From contig JALOQK010000007.1 in NCBI GenBank assembly GCA_025453395.1, forward strand, positions 6,524 through 70,523: DNA of 64,000 bases, in the 5' to 3' direction. Position 1 is the stretch's first letter. The number at the start of each line of letters is the position of its first letter. A program made the translations under genes and the position numbers. A model generated the notes under the pieces. It was given only the letters and a program-made list of their open reading frames with translations, made no database searches and was not told the DNA's origin. Shown piece after piece: positions 50,555-64,000 of the stretch. Source of the stretch: Candidatus Omnitrophota bacterium (GTDB lineage Bacteria; Omnitrophota; Gorgyraeia; Gygaellales; Profunditerraquicolaceae).

Positions 50555-51461
50555 AGTCCACCAATATTGTGGTTATTGACATATTCTCAGAGGCATTGCT
50601 GGCATTAGAAAGCATAATATTACATTTGTCCCCGGACGGATTAGAAAAATTCAATTCGGTCAAGGCTAACTCTATCTTCATATCTGCCGCTGGCGTCAGC
50701 TTCTTGCATGAAGGACAATCCCCGGACACGCCTCCGGCAACCTTTCTTTCAATAGGCTTCATATCCACCAGGTTCCATCCTTTAGCGGACATATTATCCT
50801 TATAAAAATTGGCCACAGGCTCTATATCGCTTGAGACAGAATAAGTCGCTCTCATTGTTTTATCCTGCTCTGACAAAGTCAACAAGGATGCCCCCGGATA
50901 AACCGGAGTAACGTCTTTCTTTGGATGCGCCAGCAACTTGGGGAAAACATTTTCCGCCTCTTTAGAAGAACTTGCATTATCATTTGTCTTGCTGTATGAA
51001 ACCGTAAATCTTGTCTTATTGTCCCGGGAAAATTCAGAAGGCATAAAACTTATGATCACCTGCTCCGGGTCTTTAGAAAAATACATGGTGCGCCCCATGG
51101 AATCTTCCATTTCCGGGGTCACCCTTACTGCCGGCAGTTTCTTTAGATTCTGCATTAATTCCTGCTCTGTCCAGCCTGATGCCGATAATTTTTTGCGGTA
51201 GAAATCCTTTATTGCCGCGGCGCCCTGGCTGGAAGCATAATAAATAAAATCTAATTTTCTCCCGGCGATCATCCGCTCTTCCCTCTTGACTTCTTCCGTT
51301 CCATAAGGAACGGACAATTCCTGTTTGGCAGATCCAAGTTCCCACCAGGAAGCGGAAGCAGAATTGGCCCCCGCGGTCAAAATAAAAATCATCAGCGCCA
51401 CCGGAAACATTTTTTTACGGCAATAAAACATTTTTCTCTTCCTCCTGTTTTCTAAAAACAA
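50535..51461 (-). CDS. Exported hypothetical protein with two related domains (xFYxxxxSAxGW motif twice). The true start is probably one of the internal Met codons (MFPVALMIFILTAGANSASA).
   Basis: ORF track. The N-terminus is signal-like. Its 5' end overlaps the end of the upstream TadG-like gene. Confidence 0.6.
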   Translation of the reverse strand: MFLENRRKRKMFYCRKKMFPVALMIFILTAGANSASASWWELGSAKQELSVPYGTEEVKREERMIAGRKLDFIYYASSQGAAAIKDFYRKKLSASGWTEQELMQNLKKLPAVRVTPEMEDSMGRTMYFSKDPEQVIISFMPSEFSRDNKTRFTVSYSKTNDNASSSKEAENVFPKLLAHPKKDVTPVYPGASLLTLSEQDKTMRATYSVSSDIEPVANFYKDNMSAKGWNLVDMKPIERKVAGGVSGDCPSCKKLTPAADMKIELALTELNFSNPSGDKCNIMLSNASNASENMSITTILVDYAENKK

Positions 51462-53281
51462 TCGGCATTGGCGGTACGCAGTTCTTTTATTTGCGTCTCT
51501 ATGTCCGCGGCATTTTGCCTGAAACCATCGGCATTATCCCTTAACAGATCCGCGGAAGCAAAAAGTGCGTTGGCCTGCTCTATCAACCCGGCAACCAACA
51601 ATGCGTTTGCCTCAACCTCCGTCTCACTTGCCTGACTTTCCATAGTTGCGGCGTTTTGATATAAATCCACTACTTGCCCTTCCAAAGCCGAAACATCTTC
51701 AACAACACTTTTGCAACGGTTATAGGTTACCCCCGGGTCGTCGGTCTCCACAATCGAGGCATCATGGCGCAATACCGGTTCATGGATCTGGCCAAGCCCG
51801 GTGAAATTAACCACACTGTAACTTGTAATATCCGGATATTCTGTTTGCCACAAACCAAGATCCCCGCCTTGATGATGTTGAGTAGTCCTTAAAGTAACTA
51901 AGCGGTCATGCACAATATCATCTATCCAGCAGATGATAAAAGGAAATGACGACTCAAGGTTTCCGCTTCGCACTGGGTACGCCGGCAACAATCCTGCCAA
52001 GGCTATGGCAAGAGGTGCGTACATTGAGGCCATCGTAGCTATGGCTGCTGCATTAGATTCCAAACCAAGTGCATTCATTTTTAAACCGGCGAAATTGGTT
52101 TCTATGCCTGCAAAAAGAGCAGCTTCCGCAGCCGCACATTGCGTAGCCCAGGTATGGCAACAAGGACAACCGGCATGGCAATGGCTGTGGCAACATGATA
52201 AACAAGGCCCCACGCAGGCGCAGGCAAGGACCAGAGCATCTTCTGCGATAGTATAACTTACTCCCGCTGCCACCCAACTAGCCTCAGCGGAAGCATATGA
52301 TGCCCCTGCCGCAGTTAAGGAAGCTGTAGCTGCCTTTGCAGAAGAAATAATATTCCACAAAAGCGGCAATTCCACAACACTGGGAAGTGCCGCGACTTTT
52401 AAATCAAAGGTATCCACCTTATCAAGCTTAACGCTTGTTTTGACAAAATGCAATCTTTCCTGGCCGTCTACCCAGCGATATTCATATTCATCGCCATGCT
52501 TTATATTATCAAGAAAATCGCTAAAGCTATCCCGGTAATTATTTCTTGCATCATCGCCAACAACAGAACTTGCGGGCTTGCCGGCTTTAAGCTTTGAACC
52601 GATTTCGCTGTTCATAAAAGCGAATTTATGCGCCAGTTCAATCGCGCTTTCCCTGCCTTCTTTTGCCATCTTTCTTATTGAAGCGTAAAAATAGATCTGC
52701 GCTGCGGCAAAGGCAGCAACAGAAATAAAGATCGCTATAAGCGTAGTAGTAAAAACCTCCATTGCCTCAAGCGCCAAGCCAATAGCAATTATCGCCTTGC
52801 CTATGCTAAATCCCGCCGCAGCCAGTTTCCCGATTGCCGCTGAAGTAAAGCCCAATGCCGCGCAAGGTGACGGACATGCAGTTGATTCCGCGGAACCGGC
52901 AGCAATTACCGCGGCAGTGGCTGCGGCCTCCGCGGCGGTTGCCGCAGCCTGACCGGCAATCGCCTGCGTATGCGCCTGGATCAAGTTATAAGTAGCAATG
53001 GCAAAAGAAACAGCCACCAGCGCATAAAACTCCCAATACCCTGTTTCCATGGCTGAATTGGCCTGGGCTACGCCGTTAAAGACATTTGCCATCACCGACC
53101 CGCCGGCTAAACTTCCGGCATCAGCGGCATTGCTGGTATCGGTCTTAAAAAAAGCCACCTTGCTTAAATTCATAGTCACCAGCGACATGGTGATAAGCAC
53201 AACCAGAACCACAAGAAATATGGGGATAAGCTGGCCCTTTTTGCCGAGACGGAATTTATAGAAATGAAATCTACGGAACAT
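51452..53281 (-). CDS. tadG: TadG-like pilus assembly protein (609 aa) with an N-terminal Tad_N-type TM segment and an unusual Cys/His-rich cluster
   Basis: The N-terminus is GQLIPIFLVVLVVLITMSLVTMNLSKV ... NAADAGSLAGG (a TadE/G-like motif). The internal cluster is CACVGPCLSCCHSHCHAGCPCCHTWATQC (about 52140-52230). Confidence 0.6.
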   Translation of the reverse strand: MFRRFHFYKFRLGKKGQLIPIFLVVLVVLITMSLVTMNLSKVAFFKTDTSNAADAGSLAGGSVMANVFNGVAQANSAMETGYWEFYALVAVSFAIATYNLIQAHTQAIAGQAAATAAEAAATAAVIAAGSAESTACPSPCAALGFTSAAIGKLAAAGFSIGKAIIAIGLALEAMEVFTTTLIAIFISVAAFAAAQIYFYASIRKMAKEGRESAIELAHKFAFMNSEIGSKLKAGKPASSVVGDDARNNYRDSFSDFLDNIKHGDEYEYRWVDGQERLHFVKTSVKLDKVDTFDLKVAALPSVVELPLLWNIISSAKAATASLTAAGASYASAEASWVAAGVSYTIAEDALVLACACVGPCLSCCHSHCHAGCPCCHTWATQCAAAEAALFAGIETNFAGLKMNALGLESNAAAIATMASMYAPLAIALAGLLPAYPVRSGNLESSFPFIICWIDDIVHDRLVTLRTTQHHQGGDLGLWQTEYPDITSYSVVNFTGLGQIHEPVLRHDASIVETDDPGVTYNRCKSVVEDVSALEGQVVDLYQNAATMESQASETEVEANALLVAGLIEQANALFASADLLRDNADGFRQNAADIETQIKELRTANADCF

Positions 53282-53288
53282 ATTATTC

Positions 53289-53573
53289 CTATTTTTGCCC
53301 TGTGCCGCCGGTTAAGACTTCTTCTTCTGTCAGATTATCCGGGGCATAGACCGGCCAGCGTAGCGTGTATTTGTCAGACGAAGTCCCGGCGGGAACCCGC
53401 GAGGCATTATAATTGGCCTGCCGCTTGACGATCTGGGCGTTGCCCCAGAACCAGATCCTGATGATCCCGCCGATAAAAAGAAAAATAATAATGAAAACCA
53501 CCGCGGTCTCAAGCGTTGACTGCCCGGATCGGCCTTTCTTAATCGGATTTATTCTGCGAACGGAGTTACCCAT
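53289..53573 (-). CDS. tadE: TadE-like minor pseudopilin (94 aa)
   Basis: The N-terminus is GQSTLETAVVFIIIFLFIGGIIRIWFW. It lies within the tad gene string. Confidence 0.55.
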   Translation of the reverse strand: MGNSVRRINPIKKGRSGQSTLETAVVFIIIFLFIGGIIRIWFWGNAQIVKRQANYNASRVPAGTSSDKYTLRWPVYAPDNLTEEEVLTGGTGQK

Positions 53574-54298
53574 TGCTGCGTCCTCTCCACTGTGCCATCC
53601 TTAGAGGCCTTACTGCTGTATTTATACTGACCATCAACCGGATCACGGTAAATATACTGCTCTACATCCACCAGATTTCCTCCTGAAATAATCTTATCAT
53701 TATCATCATTGCTATCGTCGTCGTTTTCCCTGATAGTGTAGGGAATAGTTGTCCTGATGCGCTCCTTAAGGCTAGAGCCCTTAATATTAGAAATACCGCC
53801 ATAATCTTCCTGCTTATTAACATTCTCTTCAAACTCAAGATTAGATTCTGTTGTCATATCTTCAACCCTTAAAGACCTGTTTTCTTCATCATCTTCTGAA
53901 ATATAATCACGGAATTTCCTTGTGTACTCGTCTTCATTGATCCGATAGGTCATGGTATTTTCCGGCTGTTCTCCCACCTTAGGCACTGCCCAAAACACAT
54001 TCGCAGAGCCGCTTACAGTCTGGGGGCTTCCTTTTTTGAAGCTTGAAAAATCCGCGTTGCGCCGATTCTGTAATAAGGTATACTGGACAGACGCGCCTGC
54101 TCCTTCGGATTCTGACCCGATATAAGTGCACCCCTTTTGCAACGCTCTCCGGAAAGCCTCCATTTTGGTGTATTGCTGGTCGTTTAATCTTTGCATGTAA
54201 GAAATAAGCATCCCGAATAAAAAAAGGATCAGCCCGCCGAAAATGGCAAGCTCTATGACTGCCTGGCCTTTTTCTCTGAAAACTGTCCCCGCGCGCAT
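53549..54298 (-). CDS. tadF: TadE/TadF-like pseudopilin (249 aa)
   Basis: The N-terminus is GQAVIELAIFGGLILFLFGMLISYMQ. It lies within the tad gene string. Confidence 0.55.
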   Translation of the reverse strand: MRAGTVFREKGQAVIELAIFGGLILFLFGMLISYMQRLNDQQYTKMEAFRRALQKGCTYIGSESEGAGASVQYTLLQNRRNADFSSFKKGSPQTVSGSANVFWAVPKVGEQPENTMTYRINEDEYTRKFRDYISEDDEENRSLRVEDMTTESNLEFEENVNKQEDYGGISNIKGSSLKERIRTTIPYTIRENDDDSNDDNDKIISGGNLVDVEQYIYRDPVDGQYKYSSKASKDGTVERTQQWVTPFAE

Positions 54299-54315
54299 TT
54301 TACCTCTTTCTTATG

Positions 54316-54750
54316 TTACTCCTTTGAATCTACTAAACTGGCCTCTAAATCTTCATTCTTAAATTCACTGTCAGACGCTCTTACAATATCATCAGGCAGA
54401 CCCTTCTTGGAAGAAATAAAATCGTATTTATCTTCGCCGCCCGCATATTCCTCTGAACGGCTGGAACCGGTAATAATGGTTGTGCCCTGAAGGTTGGAAC
54501 TTGTGCCGCCTCCCCGCAAAAGCCTAGTTGTGCTGACCATATCAGAAGTTGTGCTGGATTTACTTTGCGCGTACACCCCGGGGCTGGGCTCCCCTTCCTG
54601 AACAGGACTGATAAAAGCGTCTGTCATATCCTTAACTTTGCCCTGGAGGCCGCGTTTAATGTATGTATTCATACCGATAAAAGCCGCGGCCACCACGCTT
54701 AAGATAATCGCGTACTCCACAAAAGACAATCCTTTATTCTGTCTTATCAT
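54316..54750 (-). CDS. Flp-family pilin paralogue with extended C-terminal domain (144 aa)
   Basis: KGLSFVEYAIILSVVAAAFIGMNTYIKRGLQGKV. Confidence 0.65.
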   Translation of the reverse strand: MIRQNKGLSFVEYAIILSVVAAAFIGMNTYIKRGLQGKVKDMTDAFISPVQEGEPSPGVYAQSKSSTTSDMVSTTRLLRGGGTSSNLQGTTIITGSSRSEEYAGGEDKYDFISSKKGLPDDIVRASDSEFKNEDLEASLVDSKE

Positions 54751-54753
54751 CTT

Positions 54754-55104
54754 TTACCTCTGGGGTTCTTGGCTAAAATCCCCGACACTCTCATCCTTGC
54801 TTATATTCTGCTCTATCCGGGTACTGCTTTCCGAGATGCTCTTATTTGCTTCAAGCACAGAGCCTGAAGAACTGTCCGCGGGATTAGTGTAGCTTGTGGA
54901 AGTTTCCGCGATCTTACGCGTTATTCTGCTGTTGGCGACTGTCGCCCCGGGAGAATACATACCGCCATCGCTTATTTGCCCGGCAGTATTACGTAAAGAC
55001 CCCTGCACGCCTCTTTTAAAATAGACAGTCATGGAAAAAATAGCAATAGCCACAACCCCGATCATCACAACATACTCCATTATGCTCTGGGCCTTGTTCT
55101 TCAT
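54754..55104 (-). CDS. Flp-family pilin paralogue (116 aa)
   Basis: KAQSIMEYVVMIGVVAIAIFSMTVYFKRGVQG. Confidence 0.65.
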   Translation of the reverse strand: MKNKAQSIMEYVVMIGVVAIAIFSMTVYFKRGVQGSLRNTAGQISDGGMYSPGATVANSRITRKIAETSTSYTNPADSSSGSVLEANKSISESSTRIEQNISKDESVGDFSQEPQR

Positions 55105-55107
55105 AAC

Positions 55108-55263
55108 TTACCTCTTGGATTCATCCAGCTCTTCCTGCGCCTGCTTTAGCCGCGCGTTCATTGAGCGCTGGATATATTGATACATCGCTATCAATGCCGC
55201 CGATATAACAATAATAAGCATCGCGTATTCCAGAAAGTTCTGCCCGCGTTTTGAATTAAGCAT
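55108..55263 (-). CDS. flp: Short Flp pilin (51 aa), absent from the ORF track because it is under 60 aa
   Basis: Manual translation gives MLNSKRGQNFLEYAMLIIVISAALIAMYQYIQRSMNARLKQAQEELDESKR*. The ATG is at 55261-55263 and the TAA at 55108-55110. Confidence 0.65.
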   Translation of the reverse strand: MLNSKRGQNFLEYAMLIIVISAALIAMYQYIQRSMNARLKQAQEELDESKR

Positions 55264-55266
55264 AAA

Positions 55267-55545
55267 CTATTCTCCGCTATCTTTTCCTGCGATGTTGCTT
55301 GTTACCGAAGCTGCCACCGTGCCCATAACCCCTTCTTTAGTCAACCCGCCCTCAGGGGCAGCTTCGCCTTGGCTTACATTTCCGGTGTCATCCGGGACAT
55401 TGTTGACTATTGCCCCGGAGGCAGTGTTAAAATAATTTTTAAATGAGCCCTTCATTTTCATAATAAAACCCGCTGATACTATCGCGGCTATTACCACCGC
55501 CATAATTACAAAATACTCCGCTGTTGTCTGGGCTTTTTTATTCAT
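55267..55545 (-). CDS. Flp-family pilin paralogue (92 aa)
   Basis: KAQTTAEYFVIMAVVIAAIVSAGFIM. Confidence 0.7.
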   Translation of the reverse strand: MNKKAQTTAEYFVIMAVVIAAIVSAGFIMKMKGSFKNYFNTASGAIVNNVPDDTGNVSQGEAAPEGGLTKEGVMGTVAASVTSNIAGKDSGE

Positions 55546-56400
55546 TTAGAGCACCTTTTTAGTCACAAAATCCAAGAGTATCGGCCCGCCGATGACAATG
55601 CCGATAACCGGAAGTATGCAGAATATTAAAGGTATCAATATCTTTAACGGCGCCTGCATGGCGATTCTCTCTCCGCGGTTAAACCTCTGCATGCGCGAAT
55701 CTTCAGAAAGTATGGTAAAAGCCTCGGCAACCGGGGTGCCCATTCTCTCGGCCAAAACAAGGGTCTGGACAAAGGAACTAACTTCAGAAATATTAAGCCT
55801 TCTGGACATGTCTTTTAATGCCTGCGAACGCGATTTGCCCCACTTGATTTCCTCCAGCACAAAACCCAATTCTTCAAGCATGGGGTTCATGGTGGTTTTT
55901 TCAAGTATCCATTTTATGGAAGTGGTAAAATCCAGGCCTGCCTCAATACAAAGCCCTAACAGATCTACTGTTTCCGGCAAAATGCGCGCGATAGCATTTT
56001 TGCGCCGCGCGATTATCTGCTTTAAGAAAATATCCGGGATAATATACCCTAATGCCAGACAAACAATAAATGTCGGGGGGTCGAATTTATTAAAACCGAA
56101 ATAAGCCGCTATGCACAAGACAACTATCAACAATATTTTCAGATTAAAAAAGGCCTGAACGCTGAATTTTACCCGCGAGGCGTCAAGCTTAAGCTTGATC
56201 TTGTCATAAATCTTGATCTTCTCCAGCATTTTATGCGTAAAAGGAAAGATATCATTAAGAAAAGAATTAAAATTAAATTTCCCTCCAGTTGCCTCTTCGG
56301 ATAATTTCATGCGCGAGGCGGAAACTTTCTCATCATACCGCGAGGCAAGAAGGATGAAACTGGCGCATCCCACGATAAAAAGAATTATTAATATTTCCAT
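55546..56400 (-). CDS. tadC: TadC-like inner-membrane platform protein (T2SS F-type domain), 284 aa
   Basis: Polytopic membrane protein with T2SSF-like helices. It is adjacent to the TadB-like gene and the pilin genes. Confidence 0.75.
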   Translation of the reverse strand: MEILIILFIVGCASFILLASRYDEKVSASRMKLSEEATGGKFNFNSFLNDIFPFTHKMLEKIKIYDKIKLKLDASRVKFSVQAFFNLKILLIVVLCIAAYFGFNKFDPPTFIVCLALGYIIPDIFLKQIIARRKNAIARILPETVDLLGLCIEAGLDFTTSIKWILEKTTMNPMLEELGFVLEEIKWGKSRSQALKDMSRRLNISEVSSFVQTLVLAERMGTPVAEAFTILSEDSRMQRFNRGERIAMQAPLKILIPLIFCILPVIGIVIGGPILLDFVTKKVL

Positions 56401-56418
56401 ATCTCTCCTATTATCCGC

Positions 56419-57288
56419 CTATACTTTTATTTGGCTGAATTTATGGATCAAAATCATCCCCACTATTTGTAAACCGCCCGCGATAATCAACATAAACCTG
56501 CCCTGCTCGTTTTGCATCATCGCGTCAAAATGATGCGGATTAAATTTCAATACCCACATCACAAAAAGTATCGGAAGAACCGACATGATTATGCCCTGCA
56601 GCCTTCCCTGAAGGGTCAAGGTCTTAATATTCTCTTTTAGTTTACGGTTATCTCTAATGGTAGTCACCAGGCGGCTGAAGACCTTGGTTAAATCTCCTCC
56701 TGTTTCACGCGCCACCAAAATAGAATTAACTACCATGCTTAAATCTTCCATCATCATTCTTTTATCCAGCCTGCGCAAACTCTCCTCAAGGGTGATACCC
56801 ATCTTATTTTCCCTTACCACTAAGCCGATTTCCTGGCTCATCGGAGCAGGCATTTCTTCAATCAAAACCTCAAGCGACTGCAAAAGGCTCAAGCCGCCTT
56901 TTAAGGAACTTGAAAGTATCATAATCGCGTCTAATATCTGGACATTGAATTTTTTGCGCCGCCTGCCATTACGGATTTTTAATATAAGATTTGGTATGAC
57001 AAGGCCCAAAAACAACCCTGCGATAGCAATAAGCGGCGAGCCTGAAAGTAAAAAGAATATTCCGGCAAATATCGGAGGCAGGATAAAGTAAAAACGCACG
57101 ATGGATTTGGGGCTTTTATCATAATAAAAAAGCTTATCCAGCTCCTGCGCTACGACTTCTTCTTTTTTTTCTTTCCAGATTTTTAGTTTATCTTCAAGGG
57201 AAGGGGCAAACGCCATAGTAAGGATCACAATGGCCGCCGCTGTCAAAAACAAAACACTTATCAAAGCCATGCCGCTAAACATTGTCAA
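56419..57288 (-). CDS. tadB: TadB-like inner-membrane platform protein, 289 aa
   Basis: Membrane protein paralogous to the adjacent TadC-like gene, in the order typical of tad loci. Confidence 0.75.
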   Translation of the reverse strand: MTMFSGMALISVLFLTAAAIVILTMAFAPSLEDKLKIWKEKKEEVVAQELDKLFYYDKSPKSIVRFYFILPPIFAGIFFLLSGSPLIAIAGLFLGLVIPNLILKIRNGRRRKKFNVQILDAIMILSSSLKGGLSLLQSLEVLIEEMPAPMSQEIGLVVRENKMGITLEESLRRLDKRMMMEDLSMVVNSILVARETGGDLTKVFSRLVTTIRDNRKLKENIKTLTLQGRLQGIIMSVLPILFVMWVLKFNPHHFDAMMQNEQGRFMLIIAGGLQIVGMILIHKFSQIKV

Positions 57289-57312: not shown

Positions 57313-57669
57313 TTATTGTGGCCAGTACTCATCACTCTGCTTGGCAACTGTTTCTGTGCCTGTGCGGGTCTGCTTCTGCTTACTGACAGTAGTAGTCTTG
57401 GTCTTCGCGCCAACATCATCCCCGGCCGCAGCGTCTTCGGTTGTGCCAGACACATCCTCGGAAGATTCTGTGTTGCTGATAATTGTATATTCATTGGTAG
57501 TCTGCCCGGGAGAAAATTGTTCTCCGATCTGGTCAGAAGCTTCCCTTATTTTTCCTTGCACGCCGCGCTTAAAATATGTCTGCATGGCGATAAGAGCGGC
57601 TACTACTACGGCAATAATTACCGCGTATTCCAGAGTGCTCTGAGCTTTTTCACTATCACGCATAAACAT
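57313..57669 (-). CDS. Flp-family pilin paralogue with C-terminal extension (118 aa)
   Basis: KAQSTLEYAVIIAVVVAALIAMQTYFKRGVQGKI. Confidence 0.65.
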   Translation of the reverse strand: MFMRDSEKAQSTLEYAVIIAVVVAALIAMQTYFKRGVQGKIREASDQIGEQFSPGQTTNEYTIISNTESSEDVSGTTEDAAAGDDVGAKTKTTTVSKQKQTRTGTETVAKQSDEYWPQ

Positions 57670-57712
57670 TTTATCACCTCCTCAAGCTTTTGACCACCTT
57701 CTATTAACAAAT

Positions 57713-58096
57713 TTAATGACCGCCCAAATACCCCGGGGCAGAAGTATCTTCTTCCTGCCACCCGATAACCTGCTGACGAGAAGCATCGGTTACTTCGCTA
57801 CCCACAACTCTCTCTACCTCTCCCTCTTTCTTCAGTCTCTCTGTTTTAGTAGCATCGGTCTTACTCTGGGCGCTTGAGGAAGCATAATACGGCTCATATT
57901 GTCCGCTTGTAAATTCTAAAGTCTGCCCTCCCACATCCCCAGCTGCACCGGTATGATCCACAACGTCTTTTGTCCTTCCCTGCAAGCCCCTTCTCACATA
58001 AACCTGCATGGCTAATGCCGCGCCTACAACCAAGCCTATTAAGATGGCGTATTCTGCGGTAGACTGTCCGTTCTTTTTTCTTAAACGCATAAACAT
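57713..58096 (-). CDS. Flp-family pilin paralogue with C-terminal extension (127 aa)
   Basis: KNGQSTAEYAILIGLVVGAALAMQVYVRRGLQG. Confidence 0.65.
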   Translation of the reverse strand: MFMRLRKKNGQSTAEYAILIGLVVGAALAMQVYVRRGLQGRTKDVVDHTGAAGDVGGQTLEFTSGQYEPYYASSSAQSKTDATKTERLKKEGEVERVVGSEVTDASRQQVIGWQEEDTSAPGYLGGH

Positions 58097-58144
58097 TTTT
58101 CACCCCCCTTTTTTTATACCCTTAGCTTGCCAATTGCCTGCCTG

Positions 58145-58312
58145 CTAAAACTTTATCTTGTCTACCCCGCTTTTCATCTGGTCGCCTACATGCGTCAACG
58201 AATCTTGAACCCTATTTCCGATTACCTTGTTGGCAACCACAACTATTGCCGCGACAATGGCTGTCAGGATAACCACATACTCCAAGGTTGACTGCCCTTT
58301 TTTCTTGATCAT
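58145..58312 (-). CDS. flp: Canonical short Flp pilin (55 aa), first gene after the promoter and leader; absent from the ORF track
   Basis: Manual translation gives MIKKKGQSTLEYVVILTAIVAAIVVVANKVIGNRVQDSLTHVGDQMKSGVDKIKF*. The SD GGAGGAG lies 6 nt upstream of the ATG (58310-58312). The stop TAG is at 58145-58147. Confidence 0.75.
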   Translation of the reverse strand: MIKKKGQSTLEYVVILTAIVAAIVVVANKVIGNRVQDSLTHVGDQMKSGVDKIKF

Positions 58313-58643: not shown

Positions 58644-60419
58644 TTAAAGCTTAAACCAGATTCTTTTTTCCTGAAAACTGCATCCGGTTTCGTTAAGCCT
58701 TAAAAAAGCGTATTCCAGATCTTTGCGCCAGGCGCAATTTTCCGGAAAAATAAATTCCGCGGTATAATGTTTATCAAAGGCGGATAGTTTTGTTTTTAGA
58801 TTGTAGAAACGGCTTTTCATCGTCGAGAAATCCACGTCCTGATAGGACGCGGGCAAAAAATGCCACCTGAAATAGGCGTCCAGAAAATATAAATATCTCT
58901 CCAGGTACTCTTTTATTTCGGCGGGTTTTTCCTGCGCGTCCACCCAGGAAAAGAAACGCTGGGCATCAGCGGTATAAGTGAACAATTCCATTTTACGGCT
59001 ATAATCCTGAAAGGTTAATTCCGGAGCCGGCCATCTTTGAAAATAGGCATGGCATAAATCTTCTGTTGACAAGTTTGCAAGCAAAGAATTCTTCAGAATA
59101 AGCAAAGAAATCTTATCCCCTAAAGATGCTTTGACTGCGGCGCCTTTTAACGTAAACCATTGATTCTTATCCGGTTGCAGTATATTTATTTCTATGCTCG
59201 CCACAAAGATCTTCTTTCCTAAAGGCTTAATCTCAAAGGGGCAGAAATCGCTTATGGATTGAACTTTACGGTAATTGACAAATTGCCAAGGCCAAACCGC
59301 GAAGATCAAACCGGTTTTTTTATACTGGTCAAATTTGAAAATATTTATGTCCTCAAAACGCTCCCCCTGAAAAATAAGTGACGACACATAGGCATCATCT
59401 TTTCCTTCGCAGGCGTTGAATAAATCCACAAATTCTTCTGTGGGCCGTTCATATCCGGGCGCGGAAAAAAGAATCCAAATATTCTTTTCATTTAGGGCTT
59501 GGTTAGCGTAAATCCTTGTTTTGCTTAATGTTAGGGAAAAATCATAGGTTATGTAAGGAGTAGACCAAACTGTATAAAAACGCGGGTCAAAATAAAGATA
59601 CTTGCCGCTGGATAACATTATTTTCAGGCTGCGCACTTCTTCCGGGATTGTGCCCATTAAACGGCCTATTTCCGGAAAGACCATTTCCTTAACCCTTTCT
59701 AGCTCATTAAGATACGCGAGAAAATCTTCTTTGCTGAAATTGGCTCCTAATAAAGGCCAAATTTCCGGTTCCAGAGAGGGATTTAACAAGAAATTGTCAA
59801 ATAGGGAAGAATAAAATAAAGCTTCTAAGCGCTTCAACGATTGCTCGTTGTAATAAGAAGTTTTATTGAAAATTTGATTGTTCAAACGAGGCAAACCTTT
59901 AAACAAGGAATCTACTGCTTTTAAAAGAATCACCCCGGTTGTAATTGCTTCTAAGAACTTATCTTCCTGTGGTGCAATGGCTTGCGGTATAGAAACCGGA
60001 ATAAACCTTGGCTCTGGCACTGGCTCCGGAACAGGTTCGGGCTTTGGCTCTGGTTTAGGTTCAAAGATAGGTTCTACTTTGGACGGCTCTTCTGCTTTTG
60101 TTTCTTGTGGCTTTTGGCTTGTGGCTTGTGACTCACTAGTCGGATTTAATTCCGTGACAGGCTGCGCCAACGCAAGCGCCTTACGGATTCTCTCTTTTAA
60201 CTCTGGAGCAATGCTCTTTTTGGGCCTGCTTCTGCGGCCAACAGGCATACTTAAACCTGACTCTTTAAAAACCGCGTTTATGCTTGATTTTGAAATATCA
60301 ACCTGAAATTGTTCTTGGATCAATAGATTTAAAGCCCGGCAGCTTATTTTGGGGTTTTCTTTCTTTTTTAGCAGTATAAGCTGTTTTATTTCATCTGTAA
60401 CTTTGTAAGCAATCCCCAT
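58644..60419 (-). CDS. HTH-domain protein (591 aa): N-terminal helix-turn-helix, a GRRSRPKK basic patch, an (EPKP)n/(PEPV)n Pro-rich linker, and a C-terminal domain of about 400 aa of unknown function. Candidate locus regulator.
   Basis: The N-terminus KISCRALNLLIQEQFQVDISKSSINAVFKESGL is HTH-like. Its own promoter is covered by the TTGGACATT array. Confidence 0.55.
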   Translation of the reverse strand: MGIAYKVTDEIKQLILLKKKENPKISCRALNLLIQEQFQVDISKSSINAVFKESGLSMPVGRRSRPKKSIAPELKERIRKALALAQPVTELNPTSESQATSQKPQETKAEEPSKVEPIFEPKPEPKPEPVPEPVPEPRFIPVSIPQAIAPQEDKFLEAITTGVILLKAVDSLFKGLPRLNNQIFNKTSYYNEQSLKRLEALFYSSLFDNFLLNPSLEPEIWPLLGANFSKEDFLAYLNELERVKEMVFPEIGRLMGTIPEEVRSLKIMLSSGKYLYFDPRFYTVWSTPYITYDFSLTLSKTRIYANQALNEKNIWILFSAPGYERPTEEFVDLFNACEGKDDAYVSSLIFQGERFEDINIFKFDQYKKTGLIFAVWPWQFVNYRKVQSISDFCPFEIKPLGKKIFVASIEINILQPDKNQWFTLKGAAVKASLGDKISLLILKNSLLANLSTEDLCHAYFQRWPAPELTFQDYSRKMELFTYTADAQRFFSWVDAQEKPAEIKEYLERYLYFLDAYFRWHFLPASYQDVDFSTMKSRFYNLKTKLSAFDKHYTAEFIFPENCAWRKDLEYAFLRLNETGCSFQEKRIWFKL

Positions 60420-63027: not shown

Positions 63028-64000
63028 TTATCTTAAACGAAACTCGATAGGAATATCTACCCACGCCTCTTGCTTATCCATTGCAACAGGAAAGCTCGGA
63101 TAATTAGAAATTCCCCTTGCGGCGATAAGCGCCTGTTCGTCAAGAATATCGTACCCGGAAGAAACTTTAATAATGCTGTCCACGAGGGAACCGTTGGCGG
63201 CCAGATGAAGGCTGATTCTGACTATTCCTTCAATCCCGGCCTCTTTTGCTGCGGAAGGATAAGACAAAATATCTACTATTTTCTTCTGTAAAAGTATGCT
63301 GTATTGCCTTAATGCTTCTTGGGAAGATTCTGCTGAGTCTATCTTGGGGGCTGCCGGAGCGGCCAGCGCTTCTTTTGCTGCCTGCGCGTCTGGTTCGCGA
63401 GATACAATTGTAGGCGTAAGAGTAATATACAATTCAACATTGCCTCTTTCGCCGCTTCCGCCCCCGGTAAGATGAGATTTTTTACGAAATAGCATTCCTA
63501 TAATCGGAATATCACCTAACCCGGGAGTCTTGGTAATGTCTTCAGATTCTTTCTGTTTTATCAATCCTCCGATAGACATTATCTGCCCGCTGTTTATAAA
63601 AAGCTCAGTAGAGGCATTGCGCTTAGAAAATGGGTAGGCTTGCGCGGTGCGATTGGTAGTTAAACCGATATACTCCACTGAACCGGGCTCACTTACTTCT
63701 ACGTTAACCCCCAGCTTAATCTTTTCACCACCCATAACTACAGGCTTCATCTTTAGCTTAATGCCGTATTCCTTATATTCTACATCTGTGCCTTCGGCGC
63801 CGCTACTACCGCTTACAGTAGTAGTAAAAATAGGTTTCTCTCCGCCCACTAACAATTCTGCTTCTTTGCCGCTCTGACATGCCAGGCGCGGACGGGAAAG
63901 AATCTTGGCTTTTCCTTCTTGGACTAAGGCGTTTAAAGTCCAGGCAAAAGCCGTGCGATTCAGATTGGAAACACTAAAAAGATTTGACCACTTAGCTCCG
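63028..64000 (-). CDS. rcpA: RcpA/CpaC-type secretin, 3' part (the N-terminus lies beyond the window end), with an appended C-terminal TonB_C-like domain
   Basis: The secretin block is GLGDIPIIGMLFRKKS...NVELYITLTPTIVS. The frame stays open to position 64000. The C-terminal 90 aa YPSAAKEAGIEGIVRISLHLAANGSLVDSIIKVSSGYDILDEQALIAARGISNYPSFP match the TonB C-terminal signature. Confidence 0.75.
   Translation of the reverse strand, partial: GAKWSNLFSVSNLNRTAFAWTLNALVQEGKAKILSRPRLACQSGKEAELLVGGEKPIFTTTVSGSSGAEGTDVEYKEYGIKLKMKPVVMGGEKIKLGVNVEVSEPGSVEYIGLTTNRTAQAYPFSKRNASTELFINSGQIMSIGGLIKQKESEDITKTPGLGDIPIIGMLFRKKSHLTGGGSGERGNVELYITLTPTIVSREPDAQAAKEALAAPAAPKIDSAESSQEALRQYSILLQKKIVDILSYPSAAKEAGIEGIVRISLHLAANGSLVDSIIKVSSGYDILDEQALIAARGISNYPSFPVAMDKQEAWVDIPIEFRLR

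Follow-up and report, generated by a model that had tools for sequence, protein, structure and literature searches.

A TonB-type C-terminal domain fused to the outer-membrane secretin of a Tad pilus operon in Omnitrophota

Why does an outer-membrane secretin end in a domain of the TonB type? The question is raised by a stretch of 64,000 nucleotides (nt) from a Candidatus Omnitrophota bacterium (contig JALOQK010000007.1, positions 6,524 to 70,523; the whole of this stretch is called the window below), at the end of which lies the 3' part of an RcpA/CpaC-type secretin gene whose product runs on, beyond the secretin domain, into a TonB C-terminal domain (TonB_C). Secretins of type IV pili and of the type II and type III secretion systems (T2SS and T3SS) need lineage-specific accessory factors for targeting, assembly and retention in the envelope, and the anchoring of Tad secretins is an active question, with TadD in Pseudomonas and CpaD in Caulobacter as the cases under study. 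Omnitrophota are ultra-small, probably predatory or parasitic bacteria, and they appear to have adopted a different solution throughout the phylum, namely the fusion of a TonB/TolA-type strand-capture domain onto both of the secretin families described here.

The secretin gene lies on the minus strand, a correction to the initial annotation. Translation of positions 63028-63999 gives 323 stop-free codons ending with TAA at 63028-63030, and the gene extends past the window end at 64000, as expected for the partial secretin that had been recognized from the outset. Its full-length product, P0001, is a 534-amino-acid (aa) protein from a Candidatus Omnitrophota metagenome-assembled genome (MAG) and is 100% identical across the window part; two assemblies made independently of each other, one a JGI contig of 80 kb and the other a Logan contig of 62 kb, contain this 534-aa open reading frame (ORF), again with 100% identity. 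P0001 consists, in order, of a signal peptide, T2SS-T3SS_pil_N, N1, Secretin, a linker and TonB_C; the T2SS-T3SS_pil_N domain (PF13629) precedes the secretin domain outside the window and is also present in all listed full-length homologues. The Pfam Secretin match (E 8.2e-39, 133.3 bits versus a cutoff of 27.5) covers residues 24-199 of the window part. The segment TLTPTIVS, which had been described as the beta-barrel lip, does end the secretin part, but it corresponds to the last strand of the Pfam Secretin domain and not to the beta-lip. When an AlphaFold 2 (AF2) model of the full-length monomer, built with 115 homologues (mean predicted local distance difference test score, pLDDT, 85; predicted template modelling score, pTM, 0.52), was compared with the PDB, the top 40 matches were all secretins (E 7e-27 to 1.5e-9), followed by TonB C-terminal domains (CTDs) that matched via the tail; all 40 solved secretin chains listed with E <= 1.5e-9 left the tail unaligned. 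The predicted fold is that of a secretin subunit with its double-walled beta-barrel. By its domains, its fold and its operon, P0001 is an RcpA/CpaC-type secretin, the outer-membrane component encoded in a Tad (type IVc) pilus operon of Omnitrophota.

Past the last secretin strand (ELYITLTPTIV), the protein continues in frame for 123 aa (residues 412-534), in agreement with the extension of about 120 aa first reported, and after a linker this extension forms a 100-aa TonB/TolA-type CTD. The claim that the tail bears a TonB_C signature is upheld by two profile hidden Markov models (HMMs), Pfam TonB_C (PF03544; E 4.7e-14, 53.0 bits versus a cutoff of 24.6, residues 246-322 of the window part) and NCBIfam TIGR01352 tonB_Cterm (E 1e-14, 54.6 bits versus 27.1), so that Secretin and TonB_C both score above their curated cutoffs; the motif YPSAAKEAGIEGIVRISLHLAANGSLVDSIIKVSSGYDILDEQALIAARGISNYPSFP is found verbatim in the window translation. 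The motifs of the domain are YP, SSG-Y..LD, PxFP and a final strand, WxDIPIxF. The structure prediction proposed at the start for the C-terminus yields a confident TonB/TolA CTD fold: in the AF2 model, pLDDT is 96-98 for residues 440-534 and 46-57 for the linker (residues 411-433), and the tail comprises a long helix (434-455), the YP turn, two strands, a helix and the final strand. A model of the tail only (pLDDT 90.9), searched against the PDB with Foldseek, gave TonB/TolA CTDs as all of its top 24 matches, with template modelling (TM) scores of up to 0.69-0.78; among them were H. pylori TonB (6sly; E 1e-5, TM 0.69), N. meningitidis TonB in the TbpA complex, FusB, TolAIII and E. coli TonB from its BtuB and FhuA complexes. 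A search of the PDB by sequence likewise hit the CTD of H. pylori TonB (residues 179-285; E 1.3e-4), and the match took in the additional helix at the start of that domain, to which the N-terminal helix of the tail corresponds.

The pattern of conservation is equally clear. In an alignment of 115 sequences, the tail positions that are invariant or nearly so are Y444, Q449, Y458-P459, G469, G481, S491-S492-G493-Y494, D498, P512-F514-P515, W524 and P528. Column conservation is 0.79 in the secretin domain, 0.70 in TonB_C and 0.67 in the pilus-N domain, but 0.25 in the linker, whose 22 residues are stretched over 100 alignment columns and whose identity is 18%, versus 67% for the secretin domain. 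Since the tail domain is conserved like the secretin N-domains and the linker is not, the pattern is that of a functional globular module on a flexible tether. Across 260 proteins, the linker measures 14-355 aa (median 32); its composition is biased towards E, K, A, S and P, and in some proteins it resembles a coiled coil. At least eight representatives carry a tandem double TonB_C. Tandem domains or long linkers of 150-355 aa (E/K-rich and partly coiled-coil-like) occur in P0157, P0161, P0173, P0175, P0182, P0190, P0193, P0229, P0238, P0255, P0126 and P0148. The tail of P0001 is thus a real, conserved and folded TonB-type domain, flexibly tethered at the C-terminus of an outer-membrane secretin.

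The same architecture recurs in the orthologues, for which the initial annotation had advised a check of the tail. All of the best 120 homologues (51-60% identity) carry PF03544, and also PF13629 and PF00263, bar N-terminally truncated fragments. An exhaustive search of 1.8 billion cluster representatives (50% identity) yielded 281 representatives at E <= 1e-30, and our own HMMs place the tail in 144 of the best 150 of these (27-55% identity); the six tail-less ones comprise four fragments that end inside the secretin domain and two that end shortly after it. A scan of one genome per GTDB species found a relative in 196 genomes, and the best 80 of these 196 loci align through residue 531-534, with one exception that is cut by a contig end. 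These 80 loci are labelled Omnitrophota/Omnitrophica (65), 'uncultured Planctomycetales' (11, all third-party-annotation (TPA) MAGs), 'bacterium' (2), Patescibacteria (1) and Margulisiibacteriota (1), the labels other than Omnitrophota probably reflecting loose labelling or binning. One further cluster member is labelled Hydrothermarchaeota archaeon, probably through a binning error. A search from the distant member P0265 reveals a sharp boundary: tail-bearing proteins are found at E <= 6e-67, and the next secretins, at E >= 6e-41, have no TonB_C. Just outside the tail-bearing group stands P0308 (620 aa), which has a C-terminal extension of about 210 aa, E/K-rich and coiled-coil-like; it lacks TonB_C, and a contig end may have cut it short.

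That the tail is a small TonB-like gene merged with the secretin by a frameshift or a missed stop was considered and rejected; nothing spoke in its favour, and we regard its probability as negligible. The fusion is not an artefact because the frame is unbroken, with no stop or frameshift between the secretin and the tail, because the identical ORF is found in two assemblies, and because hundreds of divergent homologues, which come from many samples, share the architecture. Furthermore, neither a signal peptide nor a membrane anchor belongs to the tail itself, which therefore could reach the periplasm only as part of the secretin.

The tail is not restricted to the Tad secretins. A weak match, P0374, proved to be a secretin of the GspD type (N0, Secretin_N, Secretin) in which TonB_2 is matched at the C-terminus, and a search with it uncovered a large Omnitrophota family of GspD/MshL/PilQ-type secretins of about 600-690 aa. 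Precomputed TonB_C/TonB_2 matches are recorded for 64 of the 120 best members, some of which are named 'energy transducer TonB', and the HMM of the Tad tail matches the extreme C-terminus of 105 of the 120 (E <= 1e-3), the remainder showing the same pattern by eye. The consensus tail of this family is conserved, and hhalign aligns it with the Tad tail over 94 columns (probability 97.7%, E 1.7e-12), including the leading helix and the PFPPFP motif. The N-domains of the two tailed families differ, being pilus-N in the Tad family and N0/Secretin_N in the GspD-type family, one member of which ends an MshE/T2SSF/pseudopilin/PilM-PilN/AAA_22 locus. The TonB/TolA-type CTD is therefore a phylum-wide feature of Omnitrophota secretins and is not Tad-specific. 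A TonB_C module on a secretin had been called unexpected, and this holds for secretins at large; within the phylum Omnitrophota, the secretin::TonB_C fusion is the rule.

In the databases, P0001 is named 'MAG: TonB family protein [Candidatus Omnitrophica bacterium]' and 'pilus assembly protein CpaC', and hundreds of entries that are really secretins pass under the names "TonB family protein" or "energy transducer TonB". The TonB names are misleading because P0001 begins with a signal peptide of the cleavable type, after which come secretin domains, and not with an inner-membrane helix that has an ExbB/ExbD-interacting motif and a periplasm-spanning spacer; having no inner-membrane anchor and no ExbBD-binding region, P0001 is not a TonB energy transducer. 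The domain combination is hence already visible in automatic annotation, under the wrong name. In the literature on secretins, TonB, Omnitrophota and Tad, we found no description of a secretin with a TonB_C domain: the main paper on Omnitrophota genomics discusses RcpA and is silent on the fusion (PMC10066038), and a 2026 preprint reports 'TonB C-terminal domain' proteins beside giant genes and counts them as TonB-domain content. We suspect that those proteins are the secretins described here.

The neighbouring genes place the secretin in a tad setting, with rcpC/cpaB, the tadZ/tadA ATPase gene, tadB/tadC and flp pilin genes, and all operon genes listed for the window lie on the minus strand (Table 1). 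Upstream of the secretin gene, outside the window, are rcpC/cpaB and a gene for a parvulin-type peptidyl-prolyl isomerase (PPIase) with a lipobox, which may be a dedicated secretin or pilus chaperone. Across the 80 loci, the recurring order is PPIase (71 loci), RcpC (76), secretin::TonB_C (80), TadZA (73), DUF192 (61), the 591-aa protein (47) and pilins; neither the DUF192 protein nor the 591-aa protein is a canonical Tad component. A TadZA fusion similar to the TadZ::TadA fusion found here has been described for Bdellovibrio (2026 preprint). Pfam scans of the locus ORFs, to which this search was confined, detected no TPR (tetratricopeptide repeat)/TadD-like gene and no OmpA-like (CpaD/RcpB-like) gene. 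Beyond the TadG-like gene, the locus continues with a 1052-aa protein and then a giant open frame. Directly downstream of the Tad operon, this stop-free frame spans at least 15,433 codons (window 3-46301, minus strand), and runs off the window start. Its product begins with a hydrophobic helix, and the frame agrees with reports of giant ORFs beside Omnitrophota pilus or secretion loci.

Table 1. Coordinates of the features discussed, numbered along the window unless another locus is named
Feature	Position	Strand	Remarks
3' part of rcpA/cpaC-type Tad secretin gene with fused TonB_C	63028..64000	-	residues 212-534 + stop
Secretin domain (PF00263)	63403..63930	-	P0001 residues 235-410; E 8.2e-39
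Linker, hypervariable, low-confidence	63334..63402	-	residues 411-433; pLDDT 46-57
N-terminal helix of tail domain	63265..63333	-	residues 434-456; invariant Y444, near-invariant Q449
TonB_C domain proper (PF03544/TIGR01352)	63034..63264	-	residues 457-533
TadZ/CpaE (ParA-like)::TadA/CpaF ATPase fusion, 717 aa	60870..63023	-	begins 4 nt past secretin stop
DUF192 protein, 113 aa	60523..60864	-	conserved operon member
591-aa protein	58644..60419	-	weak sub-threshold helix-turn-helix (HTH) matches; conserved operon member
Three Flp-type pilin genes (55, 127, 118 aa)	57313..58312	-	
TadB and TadC platform proteins	55546..57288	-	T2SSF domains
Minor pilin-like genes (92, 51, 116, 144, 249 aa) and 609-aa TadG-like protein	51452..55545	-	
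Parvulin-type PPIase	L001 7232-8155		lipoprotein signal (…LAGC); just before rcpC and secretin
Second secretin family with TonB_2/TonB_C-like tail	L083/L084 9001-10896		proteins P0374, P0392-P0510

What, then, might the tail do? The initial annotation had suggested that it could dock to a TonB-box-like partner, to peptidoglycan or to periplasmic proteins. By the example of solved secretins, the chain would emerge from the outside of the barrel, on the periplasmic side and close beneath the outer membrane, at the position occupied by the S-domains, the pilotin TadD, the CpaD belt and TsaP. Secretins form outer-membrane channels of 12-15 subunits, and one of 13-14 subunits would accordingly display about 13-14 tethered TonB_C domains around the barrel, and these could act as a built-in docking and anchoring belt. 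In the manner of TonB/TolA CTDs, each domain would use beta-augmentation to take hold of a beta-strand exposed on a partner in the periplasm or the outer membrane; such capture would fix the secretin in the envelope and perhaps aid its assembly, and the tails would thereby replace the separate pilotin or anchor proteins of other Tad systems, none of which is encoded in the locus. Because a homologous tail is found on a second, unrelated secretin lineage, the partner is probably a general envelope component and not a Tad-specific protein. By analogy, we therefore favour a built-in adaptor for docking and anchoring, and possibly for assembly, that would capture a strand of a general envelope protein, and we hold the case for it to be evenly balanced.

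Several points weigh against this proposal. No partner protein for the tail emerged, and a canonical TonB box is absent, by strict and by loose patterns, from 15 locus proteins including the product of the giant ORF, although such motifs are degenerate. The function is argued from likeness of position and fold, and linkers of up to 355 aa together with tandem domains are easier to reconcile with a loose tether than with an ordered belt. The search covered the locus, so that a gene for a pilotin or an anchor could also lie elsewhere in the genome, and the conserved lipoprotein PPIase encoded upstream might itself be the assembly factor.

Other partners for the tail can be envisaged. Direct anchorage to peptidoglycan, in which the tethered TonB_C domains would bind the sacculus and hold the channel against the forces of pilus retraction, would give the tail the role of the AMIN domains of PilQ, the LysM domain of TsaP and the OmpA-like CpaD, and this seems to us unlikely. 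A tether of variable length and tandem copies of the domain would suit a layer at a variable distance, the presence of the tail in two distinct families of secretins points to a generic target in the envelope, and CpaD has been proposed to anchor the C. crescentus Tad secretin to peptidoglycan. Kaserer et al. are said to have claimed, in 2008, that the C-terminus of E. coli TonB has an affinity for peptidoglycan. However, the TonB_C fold has no established role in binding peptidoglycan and is documented to work by strand capture (PMC12204202), and the Pfam and NCBIfam scans matched no known peptidoglycan-binding family. The Tad-type tails are, moreover, acidic (median isoelectric point, pI, 5.4; net charge about -2), as compared with a pI of about 10 for an E. 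coli TonB CTD sequence, which is weak evidence in the same direction. The tail might instead serve within the complex, each TonB_C capturing a strand from the N-domain or linker of its own secretin subunit or of an adjacent one, or from the alignment protein RcpC, so as to stabilize the ring as S-domains do or to control the opening of the gate; this we consider quite unlikely. It is known that the S-domains of T2SS and T3SS secretins staple adjacent subunits, and the median linker of 32 aa, with an extended length of about 100 A, could bring the tail to the periplasmic domains of the secretin itself. Donor-strand-like contacts are made by Tad N-domains in C. crescentus (CpaI-CpaC; PMC13170226), and Carter et al. 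speculated that TonB3 of the P. aeruginosa PocAB-TonB3 system might contact the N0 domain of PilQ (PMC5285504). Linkers of 355 aa and duplicated domains nevertheless speak against a fixed intra-ring geometry, and the tails of the two secretin families are homologous despite their different N-domains (pilus-N versus N0/Secretin_N); the AF2 monomer model, with its pTM of 0.52, yields no usable inter-domain information.

Cross-talk with the Ton, Tol or Poc systems appears very improbable. In this case the tail would bind the TonB boxes of TonB-dependent transporters and so cluster uptake near the pilus, or it would couple the secretin, via a partner, to an ExbBD/TolQR/PocAB-like motor driven by the proton motive force (PMF). 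Having no membrane anchor or ExbD-contacting region, the tail cannot itself transduce force, the locus has no genes for TonB-dependent transporters or ExbBD, and a survey of Omnitrophota genomes found no canonical TonB-dependent receptor (TBDR)/sus clusters beside giant-gene loci. These findings stand against the facts that the tail, a genuine TonB_C complete with the YP motif, superposes on TonB chains from transporter complexes (9dc4_T, 2gsk_B, 6i97_D), and that there is a genetic link between TonB homologues and the function of type IV pili, through TonB3 in P. aeruginosa and TonB2 in A. baumannii.

A built-in adaptor, the reading that we prefer, is best judged against the systems that P0001 most resembles. 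With RcpA and CpaC, the protein shares the N-terminal pilus-N and Secretin domains and a place beside rcpC/cpaB, the tadZ/A ATPase gene, tadB/C and flp pilin genes, and its model matches P. aeruginosa RcpA (8odn_A) with E 3e-14 and 23% identity. In P. aeruginosa, the pilotin TadD forms a ring around the barrel and is bound by the C-terminal residues of RcpA (PMC10499894); unlike RcpA, which ends in a short disordered S-domain that binds this TPR pilotin, P0001 ends in a linker and a folded TonB_C, and a short TadD-binding S-domain is absent from it. In C. crescentus, CpaC is surrounded by a belt that has been attributed to CpaD, an OmpA-like lipoprotein believed to tie the secretin to peptidoglycan, and Tad systems have been noted to differ in the belt or anchor of their secretin (PMC13170226). 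Because the short S-domain is not universal among Tad systems, the membership of P0001 in the Tad secretin family stands. The belt of CpaC is a separate lipoprotein, whereas P0001 has a fused tail and no tadD or cpaD homologue in its locus.

The likeness of the tail to TonB/TolA CTDs (PF03544, PF13103; 6sly, 2gsk_B and TolAIII 3qdr), which bind their partners by beta-strand addition (PMC12204202), lies in the YP motif, the beta-beta-alpha-beta order and the final edge strand, and a flexible spacer precedes the domain in P0001 as it does in TonB. The topology, in contrast, is inverted: TonB/TolA CTDs hang from an inner-membrane helix bound to ExbBD or TolQR, whereas the tail of P0001 hangs from an outer-membrane channel, and P0001 therefore cannot be an energy transducer.

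A TonB_C-bearing protein is tied to a pilus machine in the PocAB-TonB3 system of P. aeruginosa as well, in which a TonB paralogue is needed for the assembly and localization of type IV pili; TonB3, however, is a separate, inner-membrane-anchored protein with its own motor, and physical contact between TonB3 and a secretin is hypothetical. The fusion makes a partnership between a TonB domain and a secretin more plausible, not proven, and the tail may be relevant to the unexplained finding that TonB paralogues are needed for type IV pili in Pseudomonas and Acinetobacter. The Omnitrophota fusion would be a 'Rosetta stone' for such a partnership only if the tail contacts the secretin complex itself. 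We think it highly unlikely that an 'inverted TonB' hung from the outer membrane captures a strand of a PMF-driven (ExbBD/TolQR/PocAB-like) or alignment component of the inner membrane, or of the secretin's own N-domain. If it did, channel gating or the mechanical stability of the pilus base during prey attachment would be coupled to the captured partner, and the same contact would be made in trans by TonB3 or TonB2 with PilQ in proteobacteria, which would explain why these paralogues are needed for type IV pili.

Precomputed Pfam lists also include TPR::secretin proteins (P0327 and P0341), possibly fusions of a pilotin-like kind from other lineages such as Desulfobacteraceae; they resemble P0001 in having an accessory-like module within the secretin polypeptide, but the fold is TPR and the architecture is another one. 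The closest functional counterparts of the tail would be TadD/PilF, CpaD, TsaP with its LysM domain and the AMIN domains of PilQ, which lie outside the barrel or bind the C-terminus and which anchor, localize or assemble the channel; the PilQ-TsaP structure (PDB 6ve2) is among the matches of the full-length model. These accessories are separate proteins or N-terminal domains of unrelated folds, whereas the candidate adaptor of P0001 is a C-terminal fusion with the TonB/TolA fold.

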